DNA of 64,000 nt from a virus. The notes beneath the pieces were generated by a model. That model was given only the letters and a program-made list of their open reading frames with translations, searched no databases and had not been told where the DNA came from. The stretch covers positions 13,156 through 77,155 of the IMG/VR virus record IMGVR_UViG_3300009506_000014. One strand, 5' to 3'. Positions 12,965 through 64,000 of this stretch are shown in pieces. The position numbers and the translations under genes are program-made. Each line of letters opens with the position of its first letter. Within the stretch, counting starts at the first letter, position 1.

Positions 12965-13788
12965 GTTATTAGTGACTTCATATTAAGTGACTTAATCACT
13001 TTTCTGAATCCTTCCTTGGAAAATTTATCATGTCTTAATTTGAATTTCTTAACACCGGGATAGGGAAGTCTCACAAGGTTTAAGTTACGAGTCATTATCT
13101 TGCCCGATTTCAGATATCTCTTGTATGCTTTTGATTCCTTGTCAATCTCACGCTTTATAATCTTTAATGCTCTGACCTCTCCAATTCCTTCAATCCCTTT
13201 TATGTTATCAGTGGGACATCCTGCCAATGCTTTAACAACTATCCATTCCAAGGGTTTGATTCCATACTTCGTTATAAATGATTGATAGGTAATAAATTTA
13301 TTATTGACAGGTGAGAACATTCTTACCTGTGGACATAGCAATTGATATAAGTCTTTGTCACAGGATACAATCAGTGCATCTTCATCTTTCTTCAGGTTTA
13401 AGCAGATAGAAGCAATTAAGTCATCGGCTTCATATCCCGGCTGCACAAGGACATTTTTATAGCCCATGTCTTTAAGATACTTTGTTCTGAGTCTTTTGAT
13501 TTGAAGTCTGAATTCCTTTTTCTCTTTTCTTTCTTCAGGTGATAACTCCCCATTGTCACGGTTGGCTTTATAGTCCGGGTAGATTTTTTTTCGTTTGCTT
13601 GATTTAGAATCAAAGCAGAAAACAAAATCATCCTGTCTTATCTTATACTGAAAATCTTTTATGAATCTTAAGAATCCATAGATGACTCCAGTTGGTGTTC
13701 CACCATAGCTTAGGTGACCAGTGCTATGCCTTGCTCGATGACATAGGTAATTACAATCAAGAACAATCCATGTTTTTCTTGTTACCAT
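12961..13788 (-). CDS. 5'-3' exonuclease / flap endonuclease (RNase H)
   Basis: YPDYKANR, YEADDLIA, DKDLYQL, DNIKGIEGIGEVRA. Confidence 0.92.
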   Translation of the reverse strand: MVTRKTWIVLDCNYLCHRARHSTGHLSYGGTPTGVIYGFLRFIKDFQYKIRQDDFVFCFDSKSSKRKKIYPDYKANRDNGELSPEERKEKKEFRLQIKRLRTKYLKDMGYKNVLVQPGYEADDLIASICLNLKKDEDALIVSCDKDLYQLLCPQVRMFSPVNNKFITYQSFITKYGIKPLEWIVVKALAGCPTDNIKGIEGIGEVRALKIIKREIDKESKAYKRYLKSGKIMTRNLNLVRLPYPGVKKFKLRHDKFSKEGFRKVIKSLNMKSLIT

Positions 13789-41205: not shown

Positions 41206-41478
41206 ATGTTCAGGACAATTAAAAGATGGCTCGGCATAAAACGGCCTGAGTATTATATCAGGATTGTAACTGCTATGGTCACGATTGAAGTCAAAGCAGA
41301 AAGTAAAAACGACTTGGATTATTTGGTCACGGAGCATCTGGACAAGCTGGTTCTAAAAGCAAAGGAAGTTGCTCAGGATGTCATTGCCGAACAAAAAAGC
41401 GTATGTGCAAAAGAAGTTAATAAAAGTATGATGTTGTCAACACCAATAAGAAGTGGAATTACTACGGGCAGAGCATGA
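41206..41478 (+). CDS. hypothetical protein
   Basis: AAGGAG RBS. Confidence 0.55.
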   Translation: MFRTIKRWLGIKRPEYYIRIVTAMVTIEVKAESKNDLDYLVTEHLDKLVLKAKEVAQDVIAEQKSVCAKEVNKSMMLSTPIRSGITTGRA

Positions 41479-44649: not shown

Positions 44650-46254
44650 ATGGCAAAAAAGAAGAAAAAGGGTAAAGTCACGGCTAATACGGATGCCGAA
44701 GTTACTGTCATTAAGCCAGAGGATGTAGTAGCCAACAGTGTCCCGGCTGAAGTGCTTCAGGCAAGAGAAAGACGTATAGCATTCAATCAGATGATGGCAA
44801 TGCAGTTGGCAGGAGTTACTGGCAATACGGCATTGATGAGCAGACAAGCTTTACTGAGTGCATTGAATACAGAACGTGACTATAACTTCGAGTGCGGATA
44901 TCCTGACGTATTAATGACAAAGCATTATACGGAAATGTTTGGGCGTGAAGGTATAGGCAAACGAGTTGTCACGGTTTATCCCGAAGAGTGCTGGTCACAA
45001 CATCCTGAAATCAACGAGAATGAAGATGAAAGTGACGAGACAGAATTCGAGAAGGCAGTAAAAGACCTTGTCAAAGATTTGAGACTTTGGGAATATTTGG
45101 AACGAATTGACATCTTGAGCGGTGTCGGTCGTTTTGGTGTCCTTTTGCTCGGTATTGATGACGGGATGCCACTTGATAAGCCACTTCCCGGTGTCAATGA
45201 CATAACAGGTGAAATCACTCCGCAGGGTGAAAGAAAGCTCTTGTATCTCAGGCCGTTTGATGAGGGTTGTGTACGTGTTGACAGGAAGGTGATTGATACT
45301 ACGTCACCAAGGTTTGGGTATCCGATGATGTATGATATAACCTTCCGTGACTATGATACTGTTAGCGGTATTGTAGAGACACATCTGAAAGTTCACTGGT
45401 CACGAGTGATTCACATTGCGGATAACAAGGAAGTCTCTGAGATTTACGGTGTCCCGCGTATGAAGCCTGTGTATAACAGACTTGTTGACGTTCGGAAGCT
45501 TCTTGCTGGCTCAGGTGAAATGTTCTGGAAGGGTGGATTTCCCGGTTATGCAATGGAGATAAACCCGGACATTCAAGACCCTGAAATAGATGTTGACTCT
45601 GTGAAAGAAGAGTTTCGGAATTATTCTGAGGGACTTCAGAGATATCTGGCTATTGAGGGTGTGAGTGTCAAGAGCTTGCAACCACAGGTAGCAGACCCGG
45701 TTGGTCACTTTACCACACAGGTCAAGGCTATAGCAATGACAATCGGTGTCCCGTACAGAATCTTCATGGGTTCTGAGGAAGCCAAGCTTGCCAGTAGTGA
45801 GGATAAGTCAACATGGAATGAACGCAAGAAAAGACGGCGAGAGAATTATTTGTCACCTTGCGTTGTCCGGGCGACACTTGATAGATTGCAGCAAATCGGC
45901 GTATTAAAGGAAGCCGAATATGAAGTCAATTGGCCTGACCCGGAGACACCAAACGATGACGACATTGCCAGTGTTGCTCAAAAGGTGTCGGATGCCCTGA
46001 GCAAGTACACAGCAAACGATGTGGAGACAGTGATGCCACCACTGGAATTCTTCACTAAGGTTCTGAAGATGTCACAGGAAGAAGCTGAAGCGGTAGAGGA
46101 AGCCCGGCAGAAACATAATGAAGAGCTTGACCAAGAACGAGAGGATGACTTGGCACAAAGAGAGCAGGATGTCTCTATTCGTGAAGAGACATCACGTAAG
46201 AACGAGTTGAAAAACAAGATGCAAGATAACAGTTGGACTAAGGATGGGGAATGA
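44650..46254 (+). CDS. portal protein (DUF1073-like)
   Basis: GRFGVLLLG, VHWSRVIH, IGVPYRIFMG; between TerL and the head morphogenesis gene. Confidence 0.8.
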   Translation: MAKKKKKGKVTANTDAEVTVIKPEDVVANSVPAEVLQARERRIAFNQMMAMQLAGVTGNTALMSRQALLSALNTERDYNFECGYPDVLMTKHYTEMFGREGIGKRVVTVYPEECWSQHPEINENEDESDETEFEKAVKDLVKDLRLWEYLERIDILSGVGRFGVLLLGIDDGMPLDKPLPGVNDITGEITPQGERKLLYLRPFDEGCVRVDRKVIDTTSPRFGYPMMYDITFRDYDTVSGIVETHLKVHWSRVIHIADNKEVSEIYGVPRMKPVYNRLVDVRKLLAGSGEMFWKGGFPGYAMEINPDIQDPEIDVDSVKEEFRNYSEGLQRYLAIEGVSVKSLQPQVADPVGHFTTQVKAIAMTIGVPYRIFMGSEEAKLASSEDKSTWNERKKRRRENYLSPCVVRATLDRLQQIGVLKEAEYEVNWPDPETPNDDDIASVAQKVSDALSKYTANDVETVMPPLEFFTKVLKMSQEEAEAVEEARQKHNEELDQEREDDLAQREQDVSIREETSRKNELKNKMQDNSWTKDGE

Positions 46255-50369: not shown

Positions 50370-51425
50370 ATGGAACAAAGTTTTATACTCAATGGCATTG
50401 CCAACGGGACAGTCGCCCAAAAATTACTTGCGGTGAATGGTGACCCAAGAGCCTTGCGTCCATTTGTGGGCAGGGATGGGAGGTCACGCATCGACGTTAA
50501 TATCGCTGGTAAGGAAAGAACGATTGTCACCAATGCCACAGCCACGCTTCGCAAGGAAGATTGGATTCACCTTGACGAAATGATTGTCAAGGTAGCACGG
50601 GCAAGACTCAGGGCGGTTAGTGATATCGTGGGTGCTGGCTTGACATATAACATGCCGAATGGCATGGCTCATACGGTTCTGCAAACTGAGCGTATGGGTG
50701 ACATCAATGATGCTTCTATCAGCATGGATGGGCTGAGACAAGGCCCGGATGACAGGCCGGAATTCGATATTCAGAATTTACCGTTGCCTATCATCCATAA
50801 GGACTTTCAATTCAGCCTTCGGCAGATATTGGCGTCACGCAATGGCGGCTCTCCGCTTGACACGAGCATGGCTGAGCTTTGCGGTCGGAAGGTTGCTGAG
50901 CAAGCCGAAAAGCTCCTGTTAGGGACAGCAAGCTCCTATGCTTATGGTGGCGGTACGATTTACGGCATGACCAATTTTCCGTCACGTGTAACTCGTACAA
51001 TCACTGCTCCTACTGACAGTGCATGGACAGGGGCAACGCTGCTTGGTGAAGTCCTGCTTATGCGTCAAGACCTTGAGGATGCTTACCACTACGGCCCTTA
51101 TATGCTGTACTTCGCAAGTGCATGGAACGCATATTTGGACAATGACTATACAACGAATTATCCGATTACTGTCCGTGAGCGAATTCGCAAAATCGAAATG
51201 ATTAGTGACGTTCGCACATTGGATTATCTGACCGGGTATGATGTTGTACTTGTCCAGATGAGTTCTGATGTCATTCGAGAAGTCATTGGCATGAATGTGA
51301 CTACGTTGCAATGGGACACAGTTGGTGGTCTAATGCAGAATTTCAAAGTCATGGCAATATTAGTCCCGCAGTTACGAGCAGACATGAATGGTAATACCGG
51401 GATTAATCACGGCTCTACTTCGTAA
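50370..51425 (+). CDS. major capsid protein (HK97 fold, encapsulin/linocin-like)
   Basis: LPLPIIHKDF, YG.TNFP, YHYGPY.LY; synteny. Confidence 0.85.
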   Translation: MEQSFILNGIANGTVAQKLLAVNGDPRALRPFVGRDGRSRIDVNIAGKERTIVTNATATLRKEDWIHLDEMIVKVARARLRAVSDIVGAGLTYNMPNGMAHTVLQTERMGDINDASISMDGLRQGPDDRPEFDIQNLPLPIIHKDFQFSLRQILASRNGGSPLDTSMAELCGRKVAEQAEKLLLGTASSYAYGGGTIYGMTNFPSRVTRTITAPTDSAWTGATLLGEVLLMRQDLEDAYHYGPYMLYFASAWNAYLDNDYTTNYPITVRERIRKIEMISDVRTLDYLTGYDVVLVQMSSDVIREVIGMNVTTLQWDTVGGLMQNFKVMAILVPQLRADMNGNTGINHGSTS

Positions 51426-52064: not shown

Positions 52065-52706
52065 GTGTTGTGGATGCCAGAAACAACCTGTTGGAAAGAT
52101 GAAGATGCTTTCATTTACGGCGGCGGGCCGTCACTGAAGGGATTTGATTATCAATGTCTTGTAAACGAATATGTTATAGGTTGTAATGATGCTTATAAGT
52201 TTGGGACATTGATTTGTGATATATGTGTCTTTGGTGACTATCAGTGGTTTGAATTGCATTGCAAAGGGCTTGAAAGGTATGTCAATCAGGGCGGTTTGGT
52301 AGTATCAAACTGTCCCCAATTGTGCAATACACATCTGCCTTGGCTTAAGAGAATGGAGAGACAGGCAGTTGGTCTTCACAAAAATGCTCTTGGCTGGAAT
52401 TCAAATACAGGCTCTTCAGCTTTGAACCTTGCTTTATTGCTCGGAGCTAAAAGAGTATTTTTGCTTGGCTTTGATTTAGGTAAGTCACCGGATGGTGAAA
52501 GTAACTGGCATCCAAATACACTTGATGACCCCGGAGAGGACATCTTTAGAAGATGGCAGGAAGGCTTTAGAGTTTGTGGGAAGCATTGGAAAAGCAAGTT
52601 TGGTGACAGAGAAATATACAATGTCACCAATGGAAGCAGATTAGAGGTTTTCCCGAAGCTTGATTTTGATAAATTTTGGAAAGAAAGGAGTCACAATGGA
52701 AAGTAG
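52065..52706 (+). CDS. Maf/MptE-like (DUF115-type) putative glycosyltransferase
   Basis: IYGGGPSL, IGCN, NTG..ALNLA..LGAKRVFLLGFD. Confidence 0.65.
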   Translation: MLWMPETTCWKDEDAFIYGGGPSLKGFDYQCLVNEYVIGCNDAYKFGTLICDICVFGDYQWFELHCKGLERYVNQGGLVVSNCPQLCNTHLPWLKRMERQAVGLHKNALGWNSNTGSSALNLALLLGAKRVFLLGFDLGKSPDGESNWHPNTLDDPGEDIFRRWQEGFRVCGKHWKSKFGDREIYNVTNGSRLEVFPKLDFDKFWKERSHNGK

Positions 52707-54486: not shown

Positions 54487-54852
54487 ATGAGTATTATAAC
54501 AAAAATGTTGAAAGGGACATGTGTTTATTGGGCTTTGAAGTCCAATGAATCCGGGGGACTTGCTTATGATGATTTTGGTAATCCTGCTTTCACCACTCCA
54601 ATTGAATTAAGTTGTAGATGGGTGGACAAGACAAGATTGTTTGTTGAGCCTAATGGTGAGCAATGGACATCACAATCTGAAGTGTATGTCTCGCAGGATG
54701 TTGATGTCAAGGGTTTTCTGTTTAATGGAACGTTAGCTGAAGTCACCGACCAAACTGTCCCACGGAACAATACAGGTGCTTTGGAAATCAGACGTTTTGA
54801 TAAAACACCAAATCTAAGACAGACTGAGTATTTGAGGAAGGCATATTTATAA
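54487..54852 (+). CDS. head closure/stopper protein
   Basis: YDDFGNP; beta-rich; synteny. Confidence 0.6.
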   Translation: MSIITKMLKGTCVYWALKSNESGGLAYDDFGNPAFTTPIELSCRWVDKTRLFVEPNGEQWTSQSEVYVSQDVDVKGFLFNGTLAEVTDQTVPRNNTGALEIRRFDKTPNLRQTEYLRKAYL

Positions 54853-55361
54853 TGGCTATGATGGGGACAAAACTGAAAGGCGTTAATGAAGTCATTCGCA
54901 ACGCCAAGAAGTTTGCAAAGAATCACAGTCTGCAATGTGCCATTGGTTTGAAGAAAGCGGGACTTCATTTGCAGAGGGTGAGCCAGAAAGAATATGTCCC
55001 TGTTGACCAAGGGACTCTTAAGAATTCTGCTTTTACTCGTGCTTTTGGTGTGGGCTTCAGGACTGATGTTGTTGTGGGATATACAGCCGGTTATGCAGCG
55101 TATGTCCATGAGAATCTTAATGCTGCACATGGGAAGTCATTTAATCGGAAACATGCCGCTGAGATAGCAAGAGTAAGAAGGACAAGGAGGCTATATAAGA
55201 AAAAGTATGGAAATAAACCACCGAGACAAAAGCCTTACTTCCGAGCAAGGGGTGAGGGACAGATGGCAAAGTTTCTTGAATTCCCGGCACGTTTGGAACG
55301 AAAGAAAATGCTTGCCATTATAGCCAAGGAAGCAGGGCTGAAAAATACAGGAGCAGCATAA
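54852..55361 (+). CDS. neck protein (HK97 gp10-like)
   Basis: VPVDQGTLKNS, YAAYVHE, AKFLE. Confidence 0.75.
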   Translation: MAMMGTKLKGVNEVIRNAKKFAKNHSLQCAIGLKKAGLHLQRVSQKEYVPVDQGTLKNSAFTRAFGVGFRTDVVVGYTAGYAAYVHENLNAAHGKSFNRKHAAEIARVRRTRRLYKKKYGNKPPRQKPYFRARGEGQMAKFLEFPARLERKKMLAIIAKEAGLKNTGAA

Positions 55362-56080
55362 TGAATGACTTAACTATAATTTACTATACATCAAATCGAC
55401 TTCCTGAAGAAGTTGCGGAAAGAATACGTGACAATCTTATGGCTCAATTATGTAGGTTGTCTGTTATGCCTAATATCATTAGTGTGTCACGCAAGCCCAT
55501 AAATTTTAGTTCTAATATCGTAATGGGAGACAATTTTGGTGTATCACTTTATAACATCTATCGACAGATTTTAATTGGGGCACTTGCAGCAAGGACAAAG
55601 TATGTGGCTTGTTGTGAAGATGATGCTCTTTATTCATTAAGTCACTTCAGATTCAGACCATTGGATAATTGCTTTGGTTATGATATGAATAAGTTAGGTG
55701 TTTATACATGGCATCGTAACCCTGTTTATAGTTATAAGCATAGGGCTTGTATGTGGACATGTATAGCTCCAAGGGACTTGATGATAGAGACATTAATTGA
55801 AAAATTATCCATTCCTGATTTGGACAAAAAAGCAAAATGGTTTGCTGAGCCGGGACGATATGATAGACAGCTTGGAGTGACAAAGAGGAATATTGAAGAG
55901 TACAGAGCGAGTGACCCTTCAATAGTCTTTTCCCATCTGTATGCTTTAGGGGCTGAATACTTAGGCAGACGGAAAAGAACAGGTGACAATCCTCATTACA
56001 AAGAAGAGTATTGGGGTGATGCAAAAGACCTTGTATTGAAGTATTGGGGACAAAAATTATGGTTTAAGGAGATTGGATGA
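55361..56080 (+). CDS. GT-A-like protein (paralog of the C-domain of 56910-58655)
   Basis: IIYYTSN, CCEDDALY, EPG. Confidence 0.6.
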   Translation: MNDLTIIYYTSNRLPEEVAERIRDNLMAQLCRLSVMPNIISVSRKPINFSSNIVMGDNFGVSLYNIYRQILIGALAARTKYVACCEDDALYSLSHFRFRPLDNCFGYDMNKLGVYTWHRNPVYSYKHRACMWTCIAPRDLMIETLIEKLSIPDLDKKAKWFAEPGRYDRQLGVTKRNIEEYRASDPSIVFSHLYALGAEYLGRRKRTGDNPHYKEEYWGDAKDLVLKYWGQKLWFKEIG

Positions 56081-56898
56081 TGGACAAAGTTGCTATAATA
56101 TTACCGGCAAGAAATGAACGGTTTTTGCAACCGACCATTGACCACTTACTCAAAAGTGCAGTGGGTGAAATTCAAATCATCGCTGTCCTTGATGACTATT
56201 GGCCTAATCCACCGATAGAAGACCACCCGGATGTTGATATTATACATTTGGGACAAAGGCGTGGTATGCGTCCTGCTATAATGGCAGGGGTGGCAGCAAC
56301 AAACGCCAAATATATAATGAAGCTTGATGCTCATTGCTTAATGGATGAAGGTTTTGACATTAAGCTTCAGCAGGACATTGAATATGATTGGATTGTTGTC
56401 CCCCGACGATATCCTCTTGACATTGATAACTGGAAAAGAATAGAGTGGAAAATATTCGACCACTTATATTTAACAAAGCCAAGTGACACTGAACCGGGAT
56501 ATCAAGGGAAGTGGTGGAGAGAAAGAGGGGAAGCAAGGAAGAATATTTTGATTGATGACCTGATGACATTCCAAGGTTCTTGTTGGTTTTGTCATCGTGA
56601 CTACTTTTGGGAGTTTGGTGGTTTTGATTTGGGTTATGGTCACTTTTACCATGAGGCTCAGGAGATTGGTTTTCGGACATGGTTGAGTGGTGGACGTGTT
56701 GTTAGGAATAAAAAAACATGGTATGCACATCTACACAAAGGGACAAGGTTTGGTCGTGGATACTCTTTGCGAAAAGGAATACAAGAGCAGGGACGTGACT
56801 ATTTAAGAAAGGTATGGGTAGATGGAGATAATGGGCCAAAGCAGAAATATCCTCTACAATGGCTCATTGATAAATTTATGCCTATGCCCGGATGGTAA
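56077..56898 (+). CDS. GT2/GT27 (ppGalNAc-T-like) glycosyltransferase
   Basis: ILPARNE, LDAHC (DxH), GGFD...EIGFRTWLSGG. Confidence 0.8.
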   Translation: MMDKVAIILPARNERFLQPTIDHLLKSAVGEIQIIAVLDDYWPNPPIEDHPDVDIIHLGQRRGMRPAIMAGVAATNAKYIMKLDAHCLMDEGFDIKLQQDIEYDWIVVPRRYPLDIDNWKRIEWKIFDHLYLTKPSDTEPGYQGKWWRERGEARKNILIDDLMTFQGSCWFCHRDYFWEFGGFDLGYGHFYHEAQEIGFRTWLSGGRVVRNKKTWYAHLHKGTRFGRGYSLRKGIQEQGRDYLRKVWVDGDNGPKQKYPLQWLIDKFMPMPGW

Positions 56899-56909
56899 GG
56901 AGAGCAGCT

Positions 56910-58655
56910 ATGTCAGTGACAAATTATGATTTAAGTGTTATAATTCCGGCAAGGAATGAAATGTTTTTGAAAAGGACAATAGAAGATGCCCTTAACAAGA
57001 AACGTGGCAAAACTGAAGTTATTGTTATTCTTGATGGTTATTGGCCTGAAGAGAGTATTGAAGATAATCAGGACTTGACAATTATTCATCATTCGTCATC
57101 AATAGGTCAGAGACAGGCTTGCAATGAAGGGGTGAGAGTTTCAAACGCCAAGTATATAATGAAGCTTGACGCTCATTGTATATTGGATGAGGGCTTCGAT
57201 GTCAAGCTTATGGCTGATTGTGAATATGACTGGACAGTTGTCCCCCGGATGTATAATCTTCATGCCTTTGATATGGTATGTCAAGATTGTGGTAGGAGAA
57301 ATAGTCAAGGTAAAATAATTTGCCAAAATGAAAAATGCAAGAGTAAAAATCTTGTCATGGATATTATCTGGCGTCCTAAAAAACATGCAAGTGACTTTAT
57401 GTGGTTTGACACTACATTGAAATTCCGATACTTTGACAGGAATGCTCTTGAACCTTATATAATAGATGGAGACATTCGCAAAACAAAGGAATACTATAGC
57501 CACAACTACAGACCTGAGCAGACTAAGCCTGATATAGCAGACCAAATGACATGTTTGGGGGCTTGTTGGTTTTTGCAAAGAGACAGATATTGGGAGCTTG
57601 GAGGGATGGATGAGGGACATGGTTCTTGGGGACAAATGGGTGTGGAGCTTGCTTGTAAAACTTGGCTTAGCGGAGGGCGTCAAGTTGTCAATAAGAAAAC
57701 TTGGTTTGCTCATCTATTCAGAACACAAGACACATTCAAGTTTCCATACCCATTAAGTCAAGCTGAGACAGATTATGCACGAGTGTATTCACGTGACTTG
57801 TGGCTTAATGATAAATGGCCCGGAGCAAAGCGGCCCTTGAATTGGCTTATTAATCATTTTGCTCCACTTCCCGGATGGGACAAAATGAATTTGGATGCTG
57901 TAAAGGAAGTGACCCTTGATGAAATAATCCCAAAAGAAGAAGAGACAAAAAAGGGAATTGTTTATTATACCGATAATAGAGCCAGTGAACGGATTCTTAT
58001 GGCGTCACGCAATCAATTGCTTCATATAAGCAATGGAATACCGATTGTCTCTGTTAGTCTTTACCCGATTGAGTTTGGGGACTTGAATATTGTGCTTGAT
58101 GAAAAGCGTGGAAGGCTCACAATGTTTAAGCAGATATTTGAGGGACTTTGTAATATCAAGTGTGACTATGTATTTTTATGTGAACATGATATGCTTTATC
58201 ATCCGAGTCACTTTGAATTTATTCCACCAAGGGATGATGTTTATTATTATAATGTCAATACTTGGAAGGTCGATGAAGAGTCGGGACATGCTTTATTTTA
58301 TATAACACAGCAGACATCGGGACTTGTTGCTTATAGTGGATTGCTTGGAGAGCATTATGCCAAGAGGATTGAGCGTGTGGAACGTGAAGGCTATAATAAT
58401 AGAATGGGATATGAGCCGGGGACACATTCAACGCCAAGAGGTATTGATGACTTCAAAGCTGAATCATTTATGAGTGACTATCCAAATATTGATATACGTC
58501 ACAAACATAATCTCACAAGAAGTCGATGGAGACAAGACCAGTTTAGGTCACAGCGTTCCTGTAGAGGATGGACAGAAAGTGATGGTGTTCCGGGATGGGG
58601 ACAGACCGAAGGTTGTTTTGAGGATTTGTTGTCAACTATTATAAGGAATGTTTAG
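56910..58655 (+). CDS. two-domain glycosyltransferase: GT27-like plus GT-A-like
   Basis: IIPARNE, LDAHC, LGGMDEG..SWG...ELACKTWLSGG, AHLFR; C-domain IVYYTDN...CEHDMLY. Confidence 0.8.
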   Translation: MSVTNYDLSVIIPARNEMFLKRTIEDALNKKRGKTEVIVILDGYWPEESIEDNQDLTIIHHSSSIGQRQACNEGVRVSNAKYIMKLDAHCILDEGFDVKLMADCEYDWTVVPRMYNLHAFDMVCQDCGRRNSQGKIICQNEKCKSKNLVMDIIWRPKKHASDFMWFDTTLKFRYFDRNALEPYIIDGDIRKTKEYYSHNYRPEQTKPDIADQMTCLGACWFLQRDRYWELGGMDEGHGSWGQMGVELACKTWLSGGRQVVNKKTWFAHLFRTQDTFKFPYPLSQAETDYARVYSRDLWLNDKWPGAKRPLNWLINHFAPLPGWDKMNLDAVKEVTLDEIIPKEEETKKGIVYYTDNRASERILMASRNQLLHISNGIPIVSVSLYPIEFGDLNIVLDEKRGRLTMFKQIFEGLCNIKCDYVFLCEHDMLYHPSHFEFIPPRDDVYYYNVNTWKVDEESGHALFYITQQTSGLVAYSGLLGEHYAKRIERVEREGYNNRMGYEPGTHSTPRGIDDFKAESFMSDYPNIDIRHKHNLTRSRWRQDQFRSQRSCRGWTESDGVPGWGQTEGCFEDLLSTIIRNV

Positions 58656-58675
58656 AGAAATGAAAGGGATAAAAT

Positions 58676-59116
58676 ATGCTTCCTGCTTACTATAGATTTA
58701 GAGTGCTTAATAAAACCGACCAGATATTGACTTATGCCAATGGTGCAAGAGTTGATGTCAAAGCTACACCTTGGAAGATGACAGCCGGGGCTATGGCTTA
58801 TGGGACAGCTATTGAGGACAGCACATCCATATTAAATACAGGAGAGACAATAGCAGTTGATGGTGAGGCTGCTGGTGACGTTCATAATAATTCTTCTGAT
58901 AAATTTTGTGGACTCAAAGGTGTCTTCAAAATTATATCAGACCAGACAAGCACTGATGGAGCTTTTTATCTTTATATGGAAGAGTCACCAGATAATGTTA
59001 TATGGCCGAGTGACTTATCTGCTTTCAGTATTACAAAGCATTGTATTTTAGTTGCTGTTTTAGAAGTGGCAACAACCGGAACAAACAAAGGAGCAGCCGT
59101 TAATTTTGAGATTTGA
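58676..59116 (+). CDS. putative virion structural protein
   Basis: beta-rich composition in the late operon. Confidence 0.55.
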   Translation: MLPAYYRFRVLNKTDQILTYANGARVDVKATPWKMTAGAMAYGTAIEDSTSILNTGETIAVDGEAAGDVHNNSSDKFCGLKGVFKIISDQTSTDGAFYLYMEESPDNVIWPSDLSAFSITKHCILVAVLEVATTGTNKGAAVNFEI

Positions 59117-60276
59117 TTATGTCATCATTAGTATTGCCAGAAAGAAAAATATTAAAGCCACCTTTGGGTGCAAGGCTTAATCCGTATAACAAATACTCAA
59201 GACGGACAATAGCTATGTATCTTTTCAATGAGGGTGGTGGTGACTTCGTTTATAATGTTGTCGATAATACTGTATCAAACAAAACGGCAGGGACGGGAGT
59301 ATGGACAGAGGGTAAGTTTGGAAAAGGACATAGTTTTAATGCTAACACTAATTTTATGCACAGTGTCAAATATCCGAAGATAGATTCAATACCAATGAGT
59401 CTTATTGTCTGGTGTCGTTCAAATCAATTGTCCACAGACCACATACCAATATGTGTGAATAAGGACAGTACCCCTGTAAGATGTATTTTAGATTTGAATG
59501 GTTTAGGGAGTGGAGAAATTCTTGCTAATCAACGTGGTAGTGCCACTGTCTATGCTACGGCGACAAAATCAATGGAAATTGGAGTATGGCATCAATGTGT
59601 TGGTGTTTTTGTGTCACAATTTGAGAGACATGCTTATATAGACGGGGGAAATAAAGGTTCAAATTATGGGGATTCAGGTGGAATGTCTGCTATTGATACA
59701 ATACAGATAGGATGTGATTGGAGTCAATTGTATGATTTCAATGGTGACATAGACCATATTGTAATTATCAAAGGGGCTTTAAGTGATAATGAGGTTGCCG
59801 AATTATATAGGTCACCATTTATTATGTTTGATTGGAGTGATATTATACTTCTTAGTGGTGACCCACTGGCAATTTATTCAAGAGGGAGTGAAATGTCATT
59901 ACCAACAGATAATGACAATGATTTGGAGAATGCTTTTACGGAGAGTGAATATAGCGACATCGCTGCTGATGATTCGGTTAGGGTGCTACAAAGTGCTACG
60001 GATGAGTTTTCGATATTCTTATTTAAGGATAAGAATACATCACAGCAGAATATTAGTGTGACATGGAATGGACAGTCGGATGTGGCTCCTACACAATCAA
60101 CAGTTTATTTACAAATTTTCAACAGGAATTCAAATGTTTGGGAGACACTTAATAGTAATAGTGTGGCTGCTGCTAATGTTGATTTTACATTGATAGGGAC
60201 AAAGACTACAAATCTGAGTCATTATTTTGATGATAATAATCGTATATCTTGTAGGGTTTATCAGGAAGCTAAATAG
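59113..60276 (+). CDS. LamG/concanavalin A-like lectin-domain virion protein
   Basis: [28 protein letters not shown]...[11 protein letters not shown]. Confidence 0.8.
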
Positions 60277-63200
60277 TGGCGACTGAAAAAAGAAATATAA
60301 GTGCTTTAGATGTCAATGCATCAATAACATGGACGAATGACTCGAATGCTTATGTTGAAGATGACAACTATGCTTATACTTCCGATTTTGTTGCTACCGG
60401 AATTTATGGTGGTGGTAATTTTCAAGACATTACACAGTCCCCCGATGTAACTGGACTGACAGATTTTAGAGTTAGATTTTTTGATGTCAACTCAGAACAC
60501 GTAAATGATACATATACTTTAGAAGTATATAATCCTCAGACTACAGCATGGGAAGTATTGGAGACATTCAATTCAGGAAATCTTCTACCAACGAGTTTGA
60601 CAACTAAAGATTATACATCGGCAATGCAGACTAAATATTCTGCCGCCAGTGACAAATCAGCATTTCTTAATGGTTTGCAAATAAGATTTCAATGCACAGC
60701 TAAATCTGCTGGATGGGACAATGTCAATATAGGTCTTGCATGGGCAAACTTTACTTATTCCTATACATTAGTTGTTCCTTCACCTTCAGTGTCTCCTTCG
60801 GCTTCGGAGTCACCAAGTGTGAGTCCAAGTGCATCTGAGTCACCTTCAGTGTCCCCAAGTGCATCTGCATCACCTTCAGTGTCTCCTTCGGCTTCGGAGT
60901 CACCGAGTATAAGCCCAAGTGCATCTGAGTCACCTTCAATATCTCCTTCAGCTTCGGTGTCCCCTTCGGCTTCAGAGTCTCCAAGTATTTCACCATCAGC
61001 TTCCGAGTCTCCGAGTATATCTCCTTCACCTTCGATATCTCCAAGTGCTTCGGAGTCGCCTTCGATATCTCCAAGTGCTTCGGAGTCGCCTTCAGTGTCC
61101 CCAAGTGCTTCGGAGTCACCAAGTGTGAGTCCGAGTGCGTCTGAGTCTCCAAGTATAAGCCCAAGTGCGTCTGAGTCACCTTCAATATCTCCTTCAGCTT
61201 CGGTATCTCCATCATCTTCAATAAGTCCAAGTATATATGACCCATATATACGTGACGATTTTTATGATGTGAATTGGTCACAAACTGGATGGGTTGATTT
61301 AAGAAATCTAATTGCCTATCAAACAGCGTCACAAGGTAATTCATTTACAACACTAAGTGTTGCTGACCCTGATAATCTTGGCCCTGTACTTGACCAAAAG
61401 CTTGATAGCTCAGCAATACCCCTTGCTGGTGCAGACTTTGTTAAGGTCATTGGTGACATTGCTTATATCTGTGCTGTTTATGATAATACTGTCCTTTTAT
61501 TTAATATAAAAAGTCCTTCAAATATACAATTGGTCAAGTCAATAACCAACGGCCCTGATGAAGATGGTTACTTAACGGGATGTGTTGGTGCTGCTATTGT
61601 TGACAACATTGGTGGTTATGGCCGTGTTATGTTTGTTTGTGGTTATATGGGACAGTGTATAACAGCTATTGATGTGACCAATCCGTCCACTGCTTATATA
61701 ATAAGCAGTTATAAGGATGCTACAAATTTGGATGGAGCATTAACCTGTTCATACAAACCGGGGACAGGAAGGCTTTATATTGCTTGTCGTGGCAGTGATT
61801 GTATCACAGTTATGAATGTCTCCAATCCTGCAAGTATGTCATTTGTTTATAAATTAGATGACCCTGTGTTGTTAAGAATGACAAATTTGGGTGGTTTGCC
61901 GGAGTTTGATGATGACTATTTATATGCTCCTGATGGCAATGCTAATTGTATCAATATAGTAAATGCAAGTAATGTAGATGTCCCTTATATAGAAGGGTAT
62001 GTCAAACATGATACAATATTAGATAGAGTGCTGACAGTTGCAATTGTATTTCCCGGAACGGATATTGTGGCTTCCGGGTATGACTCAGATTGTGTTTCAC
62101 ACATAAAGGTGACAAATAAGGCAAGTCCCTATATTGTTGACTATTTACAAGACCATGTTTTATTAAATGGGTCTGATGATATTAGGTGGTATCATAATGA
62201 TGCTTATGTCACTGCTGGTTATGGACAAAGATTGACAGTCGTGCATTTCCCATTATTAGACACGGATGTTTCACCATCAGCATCAATGTCGCCTTCACCT
62301 TCGGTGTCTCCGTCAGCTTCCGAGTCACCTTCGATATCTCCTTCGGCTTCGGTGTCTCCGTCAGCTTCGGAGTCACCTTCAATATCTCCTTCGGCTTCCG
62401 AGTCGCCTTCAATGTCTCCTTCGGCTTCCGAGTCGCCTTCAGTGTCCCCAAGTATAAGTCCGAGTGCATCTGCATCACCTTCAGTGTCTCCATCACCTTC
62501 GGCTTCGATATCTCCATCAGCCTCAATATCTCCGAGTGCGTCTGAGTCACCGAGTATATCTCCTTCGGCTTCGGTGTCTCCATCATCTTCAGAATCGCCA
62601 AGTGTAAGTCCAAGCTCTTCTGCGTCACCTTCATTGCCACCACCTGTGACAATAAATTTGAGAACAGACTATTGGAGTGTTTCTTTTACTACAGGACAAT
62701 CACCTTCGGTGTCTCCGTCAGCTTCCGAGTCACCTTCGATATCTCCTTCGGCTTCCGAGTCACCTTCGGTGTCTCCGTCAGCTTCCGAGTCACCTTCGAT
62801 ATCTCCTTCGGCTTCGGTGTCTCCTTCGGCTTCAGAGTCTCCAAGTATATCTCCGAGTGCTTCGGTGTCTCCTTCGGCTTCAGAGTCACCTTCAGTATCT
62901 CCTTCGGCTTCAGTGTCTCCGTCAGCTTCAGAGTCACCTTCAATATCTCCGAGTGCTTCGGAATCACCGAGTATAAGCCCAAGTGCTTCGGAGTCACCAA
63001 GTGTGAGTCCGAGTGCGTCTGAGTCTCCAAGTATAAGCCCAAGTGCTTCGGTGTCTCCGTCATCTTCTGAGTCTCCAAGTATATCCCATTCGGCTTCGGC
63101 TTCGATATCTCCTTCGGCTTCCGAGTCACCTTCAGTGTCTCCTTCGGCTTCCGAGTCACCTTCGGTGTCTCCGTCAGCTTCGGAGTCCCCAAGTATAAGT

Positions 63201-64000
63201 CCAAGTGCTTCAGTATCTCCTTCGGCTTCCGAGTCACCTTCGGTGTCTCCGTCAGCTTCCGAGTCACCAAGTATAAGTCCAAGTGCTTCAATATCTCCTT
63301 CGGTGTCTCCGTCAGCTTCGGAGTCCCCAAGTATAAGTCCAAGTGCTTCAGTATCTCCTTCGGCTTCAGAGTCACCTTCAGTGTCTCCTTCGGCTTCCGA
63401 GTCACCTTCGGTGTCTCCTTCGGCTTCCGAGTCACCTTCGGTGTCTCCTTCGGCTTCAGAGTCACCTTCAATATCTCCGAGTGCTTCAGTGTCTCCTTCG
63501 GCTTCGGAGTCACCAAGTATATCTCCAAGTGCTTCCGAGTCACCTTCAATATCTCCTTCGGCTTCGGTGTCTCCATCATCTTCAGAATCGCCAAGTATAT
63601 CTCATTCGGCTTCGGCTTCAATATCTCCTTCGGCTTCAGAGTCACCTTCAATATCTCCGAGTGCTTCGGTGTCTCCAAGTGCTTCGGAGTCACCAAGTAT
63701 ATCTCCAAGTGCTTCCGAGTCACCTTCAATATCTCCGAGTGCTTCGGTGTCTCCATCATCTTCAGAATCGCCAAGTATATCTCCAAGTGCCTCAGAGTCC
63801 CCAAGTGTGAGTCCGAGTGCCTCAGAGTCTCCAAGTATATCTCCAAGTGCTTCGGAGTCACCAAGTATAAGTCCAAGTGCATCTGAGTCACCAAGTATAA
63901 GTCCAAGTGCATCTGAGTCACCAAGTATAAGTCCAAGTGCTTCGGAGTCACCAAGTATAAGTCCAAGTGCTTCGGAGTCACCAAGTATAAGTCCAAGTGC
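60276..64000 (+). CDS. giant Ser/Pro-rich (mucin-like) protein with LVIVD-type beta-propeller; 3' truncated by the window and missing from the ORF track
   Basis: GTG overlapping the upstream TAG; open frame MATEKRNIS...; SPS(A/V/I)SES repeats; [38 protein letters not shown]. Confidence 0.85.
60775..61235 (+). repeat. SPSASESPS(V/I) coding repeats, block 1
   Basis: recurring 12/18/30-nt units such as tcaccttcagtg and gcttcggag. Confidence 0.9.
62270..64000 (+). repeat. SPSASESPS(V/I) coding repeats, blocks 2-3
   Basis: about 1.7 kb of degenerate repeats with a short unique linker near 62640-62700. Confidence 0.9.

Follow-up and report, generated by a model that had tools for sequence, protein, structure and literature searches.

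A candidate virion-glycosylation module of GT27-like glycosyltransferases encoded beside a giant Ser/Pro-repeat protein in an uncultured tailed phage

The 64,000-nt stretch of DNA analysed here (hereafter the window; positions 13,156 to 77,155 of IMG/VR record IMGVR_UViG_3300009506_000014) comes from an uncultured tailed phage of siphovirus type with a genome of ∼77 kb; the 77,155-bp record closes where the window closes and has an 86-bp terminal repeat. Between the neck and tail genes sits a module with glycosyltransferase genes and a very long ORF with Ser/Pro repeats (Table 1). A first-pass annotation of this DNA had described two transferases, followed by a LamG protein and by a giant ORF with Ser/Pro repeats; all of them are indeed present. 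The genes at 55361-64000 are all located on the plus strand, with starts and stops that overlap or nearly abut. No plus-strand terminator was found between genes of the block; one weak terminator-like site is situated inside the LamG ORF. The enzyme genes are placed within the late structural operon, away from the replication genes.

Table 1. Genes and protein regions of the module and of a possible partner block (window coordinates)
Feature	Coordinates	Strand	Evidence or remark
Methyltransferase, three GT2-like genes, two more methyltransferases, radical SAM enzyme	148..5886	+	Pfam; behind tail genes
Neck1/tail-completion protein	54852..55361	+	phrog_5, E 1.8e-10; upstream border of inserted block
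'X'-type GT-A glycosyltransferase, 239 aa	55361..56080	+	motifs YYTxN, SVSxKP, invariant ExDxLY (DxD-like)
GT27-like glycosyltransferase, 273 aa, catalytic domain only	56077..56898	+	PF00535, E ~1e-12
587-aa fusion, GT27-like + X-type GT-A	56892..58655	+	PF00535, E ~1e-12
587-aa fusion, GT27-like domain, residues 1-335	56892-57896	+	~45-aa Cys4 insertion, ~57276-57371
587-aa fusion, X-type GT-A domain, residues 336-587	57897-58655	+	X match, E 3e-13
146-aa protein	58676..59116	+	insertion-specific
LamG (concanavalin-like) protein, 387 aa	59113..60276	+	PF13385, E 4.8e-13
Giant protein, N-terminal globular domain, residues 1-168	60276..60779	+	no signal peptide, no Pfam match
Giant protein, SPS tract 1, residues 169-318	60780..61229	+	SPSAS(E/V) + SPS(V/I) units; proposed O-glycosylation substrate
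Giant protein, central globular domain, residues 319-665	61230..62270	+	LVIVD look-alikes
Giant protein, SPS tract 2, residues 666-784, then 24-residue non-repeat spacer (785-808)	62271..62699	+	
Giant protein, SPS tract 3, from residue 809 to 1296	62700..64000	+	continues past window

Both transferases carry the motif KLDAHC, followed by FGGFD..YHEAQEIGFRTWLSGG..WYAHLHK or LGGMD..SWGQMGVELACKTWLSGG..WFAHLFR; in the 273-aa enzyme WGG is changed to FYH. The 587-aa and 273-aa enzymes share 34% identity. Residues D84, H86 and H218 of the latter, invariant in 20 homologues, are predicted metal ligands; in GalNAc-T10 and T1 their counterparts in the alignment belong to DSH/DAH and VGH.

When the 273-aa enzyme was compared by sequence with solved structures, the first 15 matches were all polypeptide GalNAc-transferases (14 by name, plus Toxoplasma GalNAc-T3, 8uhv; best E 3e-7), and the best GT2 match had an E of 0.03. 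For the 587-aa enzyme, the matches to solved GalNAc-transferases span the Gal/GalNAc-T motif. Identity of the phage enzymes to GT27 is 18-22%, and Pfam assigns them to the generic PF00535 family only. The AF2 model of the 273-aa enzyme (pLDDT 89.3) retrieved only GalNAc-transferases among its first ~50 Foldseek matches (E 2e-15). In an all-against-representatives structural search with VIA it reached Z scores of 26.7 and 25.8 with GT27 versus at most 18.8 with other GT-A families; 258-263 of its 273 residues were superposed on GT27 with an rmsd of 2.3-2.6 Å (2.6 Å over 263 residues for Z 26.7). The resemblance to GT27 that the first-pass annotation had read from the motifs is therefore specific, and the structure assignment it proposed, GT27 versus GT2, gives GT27 as the nearest family with solved structures both by sequence and by fold.

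Neither enzyme has a match to the C-terminal ricin-type lectin domain or a hydrophobic N-terminus that could serve as a membrane stem; since lectin domain and membrane anchor are missing, we call these enzymes GT27-like and not members of GT27. No signal peptide or membrane segment was predicted from sequence in the enzymes or in the fibre protein, so that enzymes and substrate would meet in the cytoplasm. When the 273-aa enzyme was used as a tblastn query, none of 50,697 deposited phage records matched at E <= 1e-5; with the family absent from these genomes, no cultured model is at hand.

The first gene of the inserted block encodes a third GT-A domain, X, a conserved part of the module that had been overlooked in the earlier annotation. 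The X protein has no match in Pfam, PHROG or NCBIfam. Foldseek with its AF2 model (pLDDT 91.7) detected a generic GT-A fold (AvpGT, WrtF and SpsA; E ~1e-6, TM 0.45-0.5), and, judged from this model, X is an undescribed GT-A family. The X domain accompanies the GT27-like enzyme in 71 of 81 viral loci and 57 of 78 MAG loci. A GT of ~290 aa, X and a fusion of the two make up the conserved module; the fusion is present in 58 of the 81 viral loci.

The two genes that follow the transferases are not part of this conserved set. The 146-aa protein has no family match in Pfam, PHROG or NCBIfam, and its homologues are absent from the other GT loci and from the loci of kin phages. The LamG assignment of the next protein was confirmed by a PF13385 match above the curated threshold (50 bits with a cut-off of 27.6, residues 92-229). 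BLAST homologues of this protein were found in only 4 of 81 viral and 1 of 78 MAG loci with GT genes (5 of 159 in total); conservation of the module does not extend to the LamG gene, a point missed earlier. The protein is probably a binding or fibre-associated one, and LamG domains occur within two of nine SPS proteins of other phages.

The giant ORF starts at 60276 and stays open to the end of the window (64000); read around the circle it has 1,323 codons for amino acids, and its stop, at genome base 333, coincides with the start of the following tail gene. The SPS tracts (residues 169-318, 666-784 and 809-1296) comprise ∼757 residues, ∼700 of them within the window. Because the terminal repeat falls inside a run of 30-nt units, the number of repeats at the junction may be off by some multiple of 10 residues. 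The tracts are confined to this one protein of the phage and are almost free of Thr; for each serine, position -1, +1 or +3 is occupied by a proline. After tract 3 the protein ends with a 27-residue hydrophobic/Arg-Gly tail that reaches genome base 333, and in other phages, too, the final SPS tract is followed by a short hydrophobic tail of this sort.

Look-alikes of the N-terminal domain are unnamed proteins of 157-163 aa, almost only from tailed phages (score 0.94, 181-183 features). In the central domain (residues 319-665) the first-pass annotation had seen an LVIVD propeller. The language-model look-alikes are LVIVD clusters (score 0.93, 178 of 256 features) and a repeated xIxVxNxSxP motif is visible, but residues 311-665 have no Pfam match at E <= 0.01, LVIVD PF08309 included; hence this part of the earlier description stands as a probable assignment, an LVIVD-type beta-propeller proposed from sequence likeness.

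A repeat ORF of this kind could be an artefact of mis-assembly or of reading a simple DNA repeat in a wrong frame. The contig does close inside the repeat, which can also be read without stops in several other frames and on the opposite strand. Against this, a single frame crosses three non-repeat domains and stops exactly at the start of the next gene, and homologous architectures exist in dozens of independent contigs. Furthermore, 34 different DNA versions encode the 49 copies of the two most frequent decapeptides, and 77% of the codon differences between repeat units are synonymous. We regard an artefact as extremely improbable; the SPS repeat is real coding sequence selected at the peptide level.

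The proposed pairing of the enzymes with SP repeats was checked in both directions. With an SPS ORF defined as having at least five SPS per 60 aa, such ORFs were present in 63 of 81 enzyme-bearing phage loci versus zero of 86 randomly chosen phage loci (726 kb; Fisher p 6e-30, for co-occurring loci that are phylogenetically non-independent and may all stem from one ecological guild). Collapsing the enzymes at 70% identity left 49 of 61 clusters SPS-positive. The SPS ORFs are on the same strand as the enzymes and usually adjoin them directly. In the reverse direction, a search by the SPS-coding DNA pattern recovered 66 phage loci, 28 of which had the enzymes in their short flanks, given a base rate of about 428 in 2.9 million contigs. 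The surrounding structural proteins of our phage have no BLAST match in the module-bearing phage and MAG loci. Since enzyme and repeat are paired in dozens of unrelated phages, the fibre is, on this sequence evidence, very probably sugar-coated.

The association also holds among kin. In 31 kin loci (capsid 49-63% identical; Neck1 homologues with 34-55% identity) the neck-to-tail gene order is kept, while neither the enzymes nor SPS repeats are present; five complete or near-complete kin genomes were likewise devoid of both, with this genome as a positive control. This makes the block an accessory insertion, ∼8.9 kb long, at the junction of neck and tail genes, a place where kin phages hold other large variable ORFs.

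Taken together, it appears reasonably probable, from gene content and arrangement, that the block is an accessory virion-glycosylation module whose enzymes glycosylate the phage's own giant SPS fibre. In a different scenario the enzymes act on host envelope glycans, teichoic acid, lipid carriers or phage DNA, the SPS tracts are unglycosylated linkers, and both co-travel in a mobile fibre cassette of one phage group. The acceptor of an enzyme cannot be revealed by sequence; phage GT-A enzymes that glycosylate DNA are known (bioRxiv 10.1101/2023.12.21.572611; PMC13326640), and ∼20% of the enzyme-bearing phage loci and 68% of the MAG loci, many of them short or incomplete, show no SPS ORF in the recovered DNA. 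Nevertheless, the nearest relatives are, by a wide margin, peptide-glycosylating enzymes; they adjoin same-strand repeat ORFs in phages with otherwise unrelated structural proteins; enzymes and repeats are all-or-none among kin; and the genes belong to the late structural operon rather than to the replication genes. We thus consider a non-fibre acceptor unlikely, though not negligibly so.

If the fibre is the acceptor, late expression would place four soluble GT-A domains (two GT27-like and two X) in the host cytoplasm together with one very long fibre. With a nucleotide sugar as donor and a metal bound by D84, H86 and H218, the GT27-like enzymes would attach the first sugar to serines of the SPSAS(E/V)SPS(V/I) tracts, probably in alpha linkage, as the nearest relatives are retaining enzymes. 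The X domains would then lengthen the glycan. The resulting three mucin-like extended stalks, with ∼750 residues at 0.25-0.3 nm per residue, could reach a length of the order of 200 nm and hold the N-terminal phage-type domain and the central propeller off the particle.

Further elongation or methylation of the glycan could be due to the methyltransferase/GT2/radical SAM block behind the tail genes. This block is mostly missing from the five complete or near-complete kin genomes, and its genes have no direct homologues beside the GT27-like enzyme elsewhere; in other phages, GT4/GT2/GT32-like and methyltransferase genes are situated between two GT27-like genes.

The fibre gene lies between neck and tail genes in a single operon devoid of terminators, which suggests a fibre of the neck or collar that may be used for capture, adhesion or shielding. 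Alternatively, the glycosylated fibre might not belong to the virion but be released at lysis or shown on the infected cell, as a matrix, decoy or exclusion factor. Homology to known virion proteins was not found in Pfam and PHROG searches, the block is dispensable in kin phages, and the hydrophobic and basic C-terminal tail may have a role as a membrane or sorting signal. Yet the protein has no N-terminal signal peptide, its gene overlaps its neighbours in the neck-to-tail operon and is not separated from them by any plus-strand terminator, its N-terminal domain resembles small proteins almost exclusive to tailed phages, and kin phages have other large variable ORFs at the same junction; a non-virion role seems quite improbable to us.

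Eukaryotic polypeptide GalNAc-transferases (CAZy GT27, including GalNAc-T1, T2, T10 and Toxoplasma GalNAc-T3) start mucin-type O-glycosylation; the animal enzymes prefer Thr. The phage enzymes share with them the DxH motif, a Gal/GalNAc-T-like motif with a conserved Glu, the xSGG turn and a downstream His, and the candidate acceptor is, like mucins, a tandem-repeat Ser/Pro tract. Unlike the Golgi-lumenal GT27 enzymes, the phage enzymes are predicted to be cytoplasmic and lack the ricin-type lectin domain and the membrane stem; WGG is replaced in one paralogue, the other has a Cys4 insertion, and the candidate acceptor tracts are Ser-only whereas GT27 favours Thr.

The serine-rich repeat glycoproteins GspB, Fap1, PsrP and SraP of Gram-positive bacteria have very long Ser-rich stalks that lie beside binding domains, are glycosylated in the cytoplasm by their own soluble enzymes encoded alongside, and form extended fibres. 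The phage locus resembles these systems in having a long Ser-rich repeat flanking domains, with soluble GTs encoded next to it. The bacterial glycoproteins, however, start with GT4-type GtfA/GtfB and accessory Sec export, both absent from the phage window (no GT4 or Sec domain, SecA2/SecY2, was detected in the seven block proteins or the examined structural region), and their repeats are of S(A/V/T)S(E/T) type, as opposed to SPSxSx in the phage.

Virion glycosylation is described for mycobacteriophage Che8 and its relatives (Freeman et al. 2023, Cell Host Microbe 31:1216, cited in PMC11256854 and PMC12582341). If our proposal holds, the two cases have in common that GTs encoded by the phage act on its own structural proteins while still in the cytoplasm of the host and give the particle a coat of glycans. 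The mycobacteriophage targets reported in PMC11256854 are capsid proteins, in contrast to a dedicated giant repeat fibre here, and the 273-aa enzyme is unrelated in sequence to the mycobacteriophage GTs, as judged by the tblastn search above. Chloroviruses and Mimivirus also decorate the fibrils and capsids of their particles with their own glycosylation enzymes, independently of host machinery (PMC9614988, PMC5408694). These giant viruses have eukaryotic hosts and unrelated enzymes and targets, while here a small siphovirus-type phage has a GT27-like candidate initiator and a repeat fibre.

A broader reading, which we offer tentatively and hold to be rather unlikely, is that phages of uncultivated bacteria, together with the ultra-small bacteria in whose bins the module is found, harbour a large prokaryotic and viral sister lineage of GT27 whose cytoplasmic enzymes carry out genuine mucin-type initiation with alpha-HexNAc on Ser. 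If this were true, viruses or bacteria would be the source of mucin-like glycoprotein fibres and perhaps also of the catalytic domain, which eukaryotes would have taken into the Golgi at a later time.

The source record (77,155 bp, IMG/VR) is graded complete and represents a siphovirus-like phage; the window covers its bases 13156-77155. Six closely coupled genes are located on the plus strand between the gene for the Neck1 protein and the first tail gene; the gene set of the first-pass annotation (two transferases, a LamG protein and a giant Ser/Pro-rich ORF after a neck gene) was confirmed on this strand. No plus-strand terminator-like sites were detected between genes of the block, except one weak site within the LamG ORF, and no Rfam elements interrupting the block were found. 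Past the contig junction are located genes for a small conserved tube-like protein, chaperones, a 910-aa tape measure and distal tail proteins. Searches of Pfam, PHROGs and NCBIfam gave no match for the 239-aa protein (designated X), for the 146-aa ORF or for a 348-aa downstream protein.

Features of the phage genome and of compared loci (window positions unless stated otherwise; L-numbers denote individual phage or metagenome-bin loci)
Feature	Position	Strand	Remark
TerL	at 41475		
Portal	at 44650		
Capsid-type protein	at 50370		
213-aa MptE/DUF115-like protein	52065-52706		between capsid and neck genes
Neck1 protein	54852-55361		
239-aa protein (X)	55361-56080	+	first gene of six
273-aa protein	56077-56898	+	PF00535
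587-aa protein	56892-58655	+	PF00535
146-aa ORF	after 587-aa gene	+	library searches without match
387-aa LamG protein	after 146-aa ORF	+	PF13385
Giant ORF	from 60276	+	sixth gene of block
Giant protein, N-terminal domain	residues 1-168		
Giant protein, SPS tract 1	residues 169-318		
Giant protein, globular domain	residues 319-665		
Giant protein, SPS tract 2	residues 666-784		then 24-residue spacer
Giant protein, SPS tract 3	residues 809-1296		
Giant protein, hydrophobic/Arg-Gly tail	27 residues		after SPS tract 3
Direct terminal repeat	63915-64000 (= genome bases 1-86)		within 30-nt tandem units of fibre gene
Distal tail genes (L002)	genome 5514-12651		upstream of window
Variable ORFs of kin phages	L282:15419-17342; L285:14444-17626; L307:13548-19770; L286:11257-15550; L295:12784-15230		around Neck1
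Small SPS-tailed proteins	L003:9089-9955; L035:8015-8935; L038:8590-9666; L054:7693-8622; L078:9206-9943		

Mucin-type initiation by GT27 enzymes is considered a eukaryotic trait. The first-pass annotation had likened the two transferases to GT27 polypeptide GalNAc-transferases and left the choice between GT27 and GT2 to be checked; both sequence and structure put GT27 first. A sequence search of the 273-aa protein against all solved structures returned 17 matches. The first 15 were polypeptide GalNAc-transferases (14 by name plus Toxoplasma GalNAc-T3, 8uhv) with the best E-value of 3.3e-7, versus 0.03 for the first ordinary GT2 match. The solved-structure matches of the 587-aa protein were likewise GalNAc-transferases, via its Gal/GalNAc-T-motif region. 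In the alignments KLDAHC corresponds to the DxH of GalNAc-T10 and T1, E193..E196..WLSGG to GGE..E..W.CGG, and H218 to the His of VGH; in GT27 enzymes these positions make the metal and sugar-nucleotide contacts. Across 20 aligned homologues with 46-61% identity to the query, residues D84, H86, E193, Q195 and H218 do not vary.

An AlphaFold2 model of the 273-aa enzyme (pLDDT 89.3) had GalNAc-transferases as all of its first ~50 Foldseek matches (E 2e-15). A Foldseek-independent search of the same model against 48,161 representatives gave mouse GalNAc-T1 at Z 26.7 (rmsd 2.6 A, 263 residues) and Toxoplasma GalNAc-T3 at Z 25.8, versus Z 18.8 for the best other GT-A family. No bacterial family comes nearly as close to these enzymes as GT27 does. 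Identity between the two paralogues is 34%, and the longer one has a ~45-residue Cys4 insertion. Since neither has a lectin domain, stem or membrane segment, we use the label GT27-like and refrain from assigning them to GT27.

The X protein is homologous to the C-terminal half of the 587-aa protein (E 3e-13). Its alignment with 22 homologues has invariant YYTxN, Q, G and ExDxLY positions, and its model (pLDDT 91.7) shows a generic GT-A fold that is close to no particular family. X was found in 71 of 81 phage loci and 57 of 78 metagenome-bin (MAG) loci with a GT27-like enzyme, often in the same GT-X fusion arrangement, and is a conserved partner of the enzyme.

Followed across the circular junction, the giant ORF comprises 1,323 codons, a count possibly off by whole units at the junction because the terminal repeat sits in a run of 30-nt units; its stop falls at the initiation codon of the following tail gene. 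This 86-bp repeat is the basis for calling the record circular. Identical 40-mers return at 30-nt offsets around it; circular closure is probably correct, and the repeat number may have collapsed at the junction. The protein is 32% Ser and 13% Pro, and its SPS tracts (SPSAS(E/V) and SPS(V/I) units) occur nowhere else in this genome. The repeat is genuine coding sequence: the two most frequent decapeptides, with 49 copies together, are written in 34 DNA spellings, 77% of codon differences are synonymous (83 units compared), and serine codons of both TCN and AGY types occur. Further open frames over the repeat are by-products. The N-terminal and central domains had no match in Pfam, PHROG and NCBIfam searches; the former is phage-type and the latter is probably an LVIVD propeller. 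A relationship between the LamG C-terminus and the N-terminal domain of the giant protein was dropped (BLASTP E 0.09 only).

Many SPS proteins of other phages terminate in a short, conserved hydrophobic peptide that immediately follows the last SPS tract, for instance MPI(L/I)S(A/S)NGIHSxxFGxxIxNG or endings such as LLLLGVG and LTLLGAG (loci L017, L025, L046, L069 and L081; also L040, L074, L139 and L151). The hydrophobic/Arg-Gly tail of the giant protein resembles these peptides, which one may speculate to be a docking strand or sorting signal.

To measure the association of enzymes and repeats, a locus was defined as an enzyme with 10 kb on either side and scored positive if it had an ORF with at least five SPS tripeptides per 60 residues. 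Such ORFs were present in 63 of 81 enzyme-bearing phage loci versus none of 86 phage loci (726 kb) picked by random 14-mer (Fisher p 6e-30); when loci were collapsed at 70% or higher enzyme identity, 49 of 61 clusters were positive. The repeat ORFs share the strand of the enzyme and are typically located directly 5' of the first GT gene or directly 3' of the GT-X fusion. In the opposite direction, at least 115 phage loci were identified with a DNA pattern encoding SPSAS.SPS; among those listed, 66 had a Ser/Pro-rich ORF, and 28 of these 66 had enzymes within short flanks, with a base rate of roughly 428 in 2.9 million contigs. The suggested co-occurrence of transferases with SP-repeat genes was thus borne out in both directions. 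The neck, tube and fibre domains encoded by this phage had no BLAST matches in the enzyme-bearing loci; therefore, the pairing crosses phage lineages.

Some loci encode small SPS-tailed proteins (245-360 aa): the N-terminal part is globular, and the SPS tail at the C-terminus has PSFP(F/D)(V/I) as its last residues. In the majority of the tabulated loci they are encoded immediately upstream of the first GT27-like gene. Ten such proteins of other phages had two weak matches in PHROGs, to phrog_15511 (unnamed, unknown function). They recall the glycosylated virion proteins of mycobacteriophages, for which PMC11256854 reports glycans attached to major capsid proteins.

Phages with related capsids lack the module. 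In 31 such kin loci (capsid protein 49-63% identical to that of this phage) the gene order capsid - p141 - p121 - Neck1 - p348 - p149 - chaperones - tape measure is kept, and the enzymes, X and the SPS ORF occur in none of them. Neither the 273-aa enzyme nor X occurs in five kin genomes of 60-74 kb that are complete or nearly so, with this genome as positive control, and none of the five has an SPS-tract ORF; a loose Ser/Pro screen gave one short minus-strand ORF in one of them (G002). Given this absence, the region from 55361 to genome base 333 (~8.9 kb) is an accessory insertion, in which the enzymes and the repeat protein arrived, or stayed, together. Other large variable ORFs (400-800 aa, up to 6 kb) are located at the same junction in kin, so that it looks like a hotspot for exchange of accessory structural cargo.

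BLAST matches in the five kin genomes were obtained for the head, neck, tube, chaperone and tape-measure genes; the distal tail genes have none in any of the five. The tail tip has been swapped out in this lineage. These distal genes match phrog_687 (twice), phrog_1082, phrog_778 and phrog_1101.

Other genes were considered as partners. LamG is not a conserved one, with homologues in 5 of 159 enzyme loci; LamG domains are present inside 2 of 9 SPS proteins from elsewhere. The 213-aa protein matches phrog_4603 ('alpha-2,3-sialyltransferase', E 1e-22) and, below threshold, MptE-like/DUF115 (Maf family). It was ruled out as a system member because it is conserved (37-51% identity) in ~20 kin loci without the block; it must have a different function, perhaps that of modifying a head protein. 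In other phages, GT4, GT2/GT7C-like, GT32-like and TOD1-like transferases and methyltransferases are located between two GT27-like genes; the block of this phage has no such intervening genes. Directly after its tail genes are three methyltransferases, three GT2-like genes and a radical SAM enzyme, mostly missing from kin and with no homologues beside the GT27-like enzyme in other loci. It is plausible, given their absence from kin and the analogy with other phages, that they share a pathway with the module.

A word-indexed search found 2,319 family proteins; clustering at 50% identity counted at least 417 clusters with E <= 1e-30. The family is encoded in at least 428 viral contigs and in 109 stretches of species-representative genomes, all MAGs, and its distribution is limited to uncultured phages and metagenome bins; 50,697 deposited phage genomes contained no match to the 273-aa enzyme. 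We found no published description of this enzyme in our literature searches. Members P0121-P0128 of the representative library (940-1,350 aa, 2-4 GT27-like stretches per chain) are multi-domain fusions of the putative initiating enzyme.

As to the host, this phage has no tRNAs, its capsid has no relatives in 185,579 species genomes, and the nearest cultured TerL proteins (<=40% identical) are from Croceibacter and Rhizobium phages. Enzyme-bearing bins are labelled mainly Patescibacteria, with some 'Gammaproteobacteria'. A viral contig (L016, IMGVR_UViG_3300029288_000026) and a 'Candidatus Paceibacterota' MAG contig (L086, JBAZJW010000006.1) are both 44,615 bp with equal match coordinates; evidently, phage contigs end up in CPR bins. 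Binning artefacts are therefore likely, and the MAG labels are an unreliable guide to the host.

The best explanation of these gene neighbourhoods, and one that we hold to be reasonably probable, is that the phage O-glycosylates its own fibre. GT27-like enzymes would initiate on fibre serines in the cytoplasm, and X and other transferases would extend the glycan. The outcome would be extended mucin-like stalks presenting the N-terminal phage-type domain and the probable LVIVD propeller, possibly as a neck or collar fibre, as the position in the neck-to-tail operon suggests. We infer the linkage, sugar, step order, attachment and benefit alike. The proposed system would work like GT27 mucin-type initiation and serine-rich-repeat glycoprotein systems. 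To our knowledge, phage-encoded virion glycosylation has been experimentally shown in mycobacteriophages only. Mycobacteriophage virion glycosylation is the nearest viral precedent (Freeman et al. 2023, as described in PMC11256854 and cited in PMC12582341). The module differs from all three systems in enzyme family or architecture, substrate and host.

If this explanation is true, many environmental phages would carry mucin-like stalks of up to hundreds of nanometres, with consequences for adsorption kinetics, adhesion to polysaccharide matrices and protease resistance. The enzymes would be small, soluble, lectin-free initiators of O-glycosylation with a simple repeat acceptor, attractive for glyco-engineering, and would be relevant to the origin of GT27.
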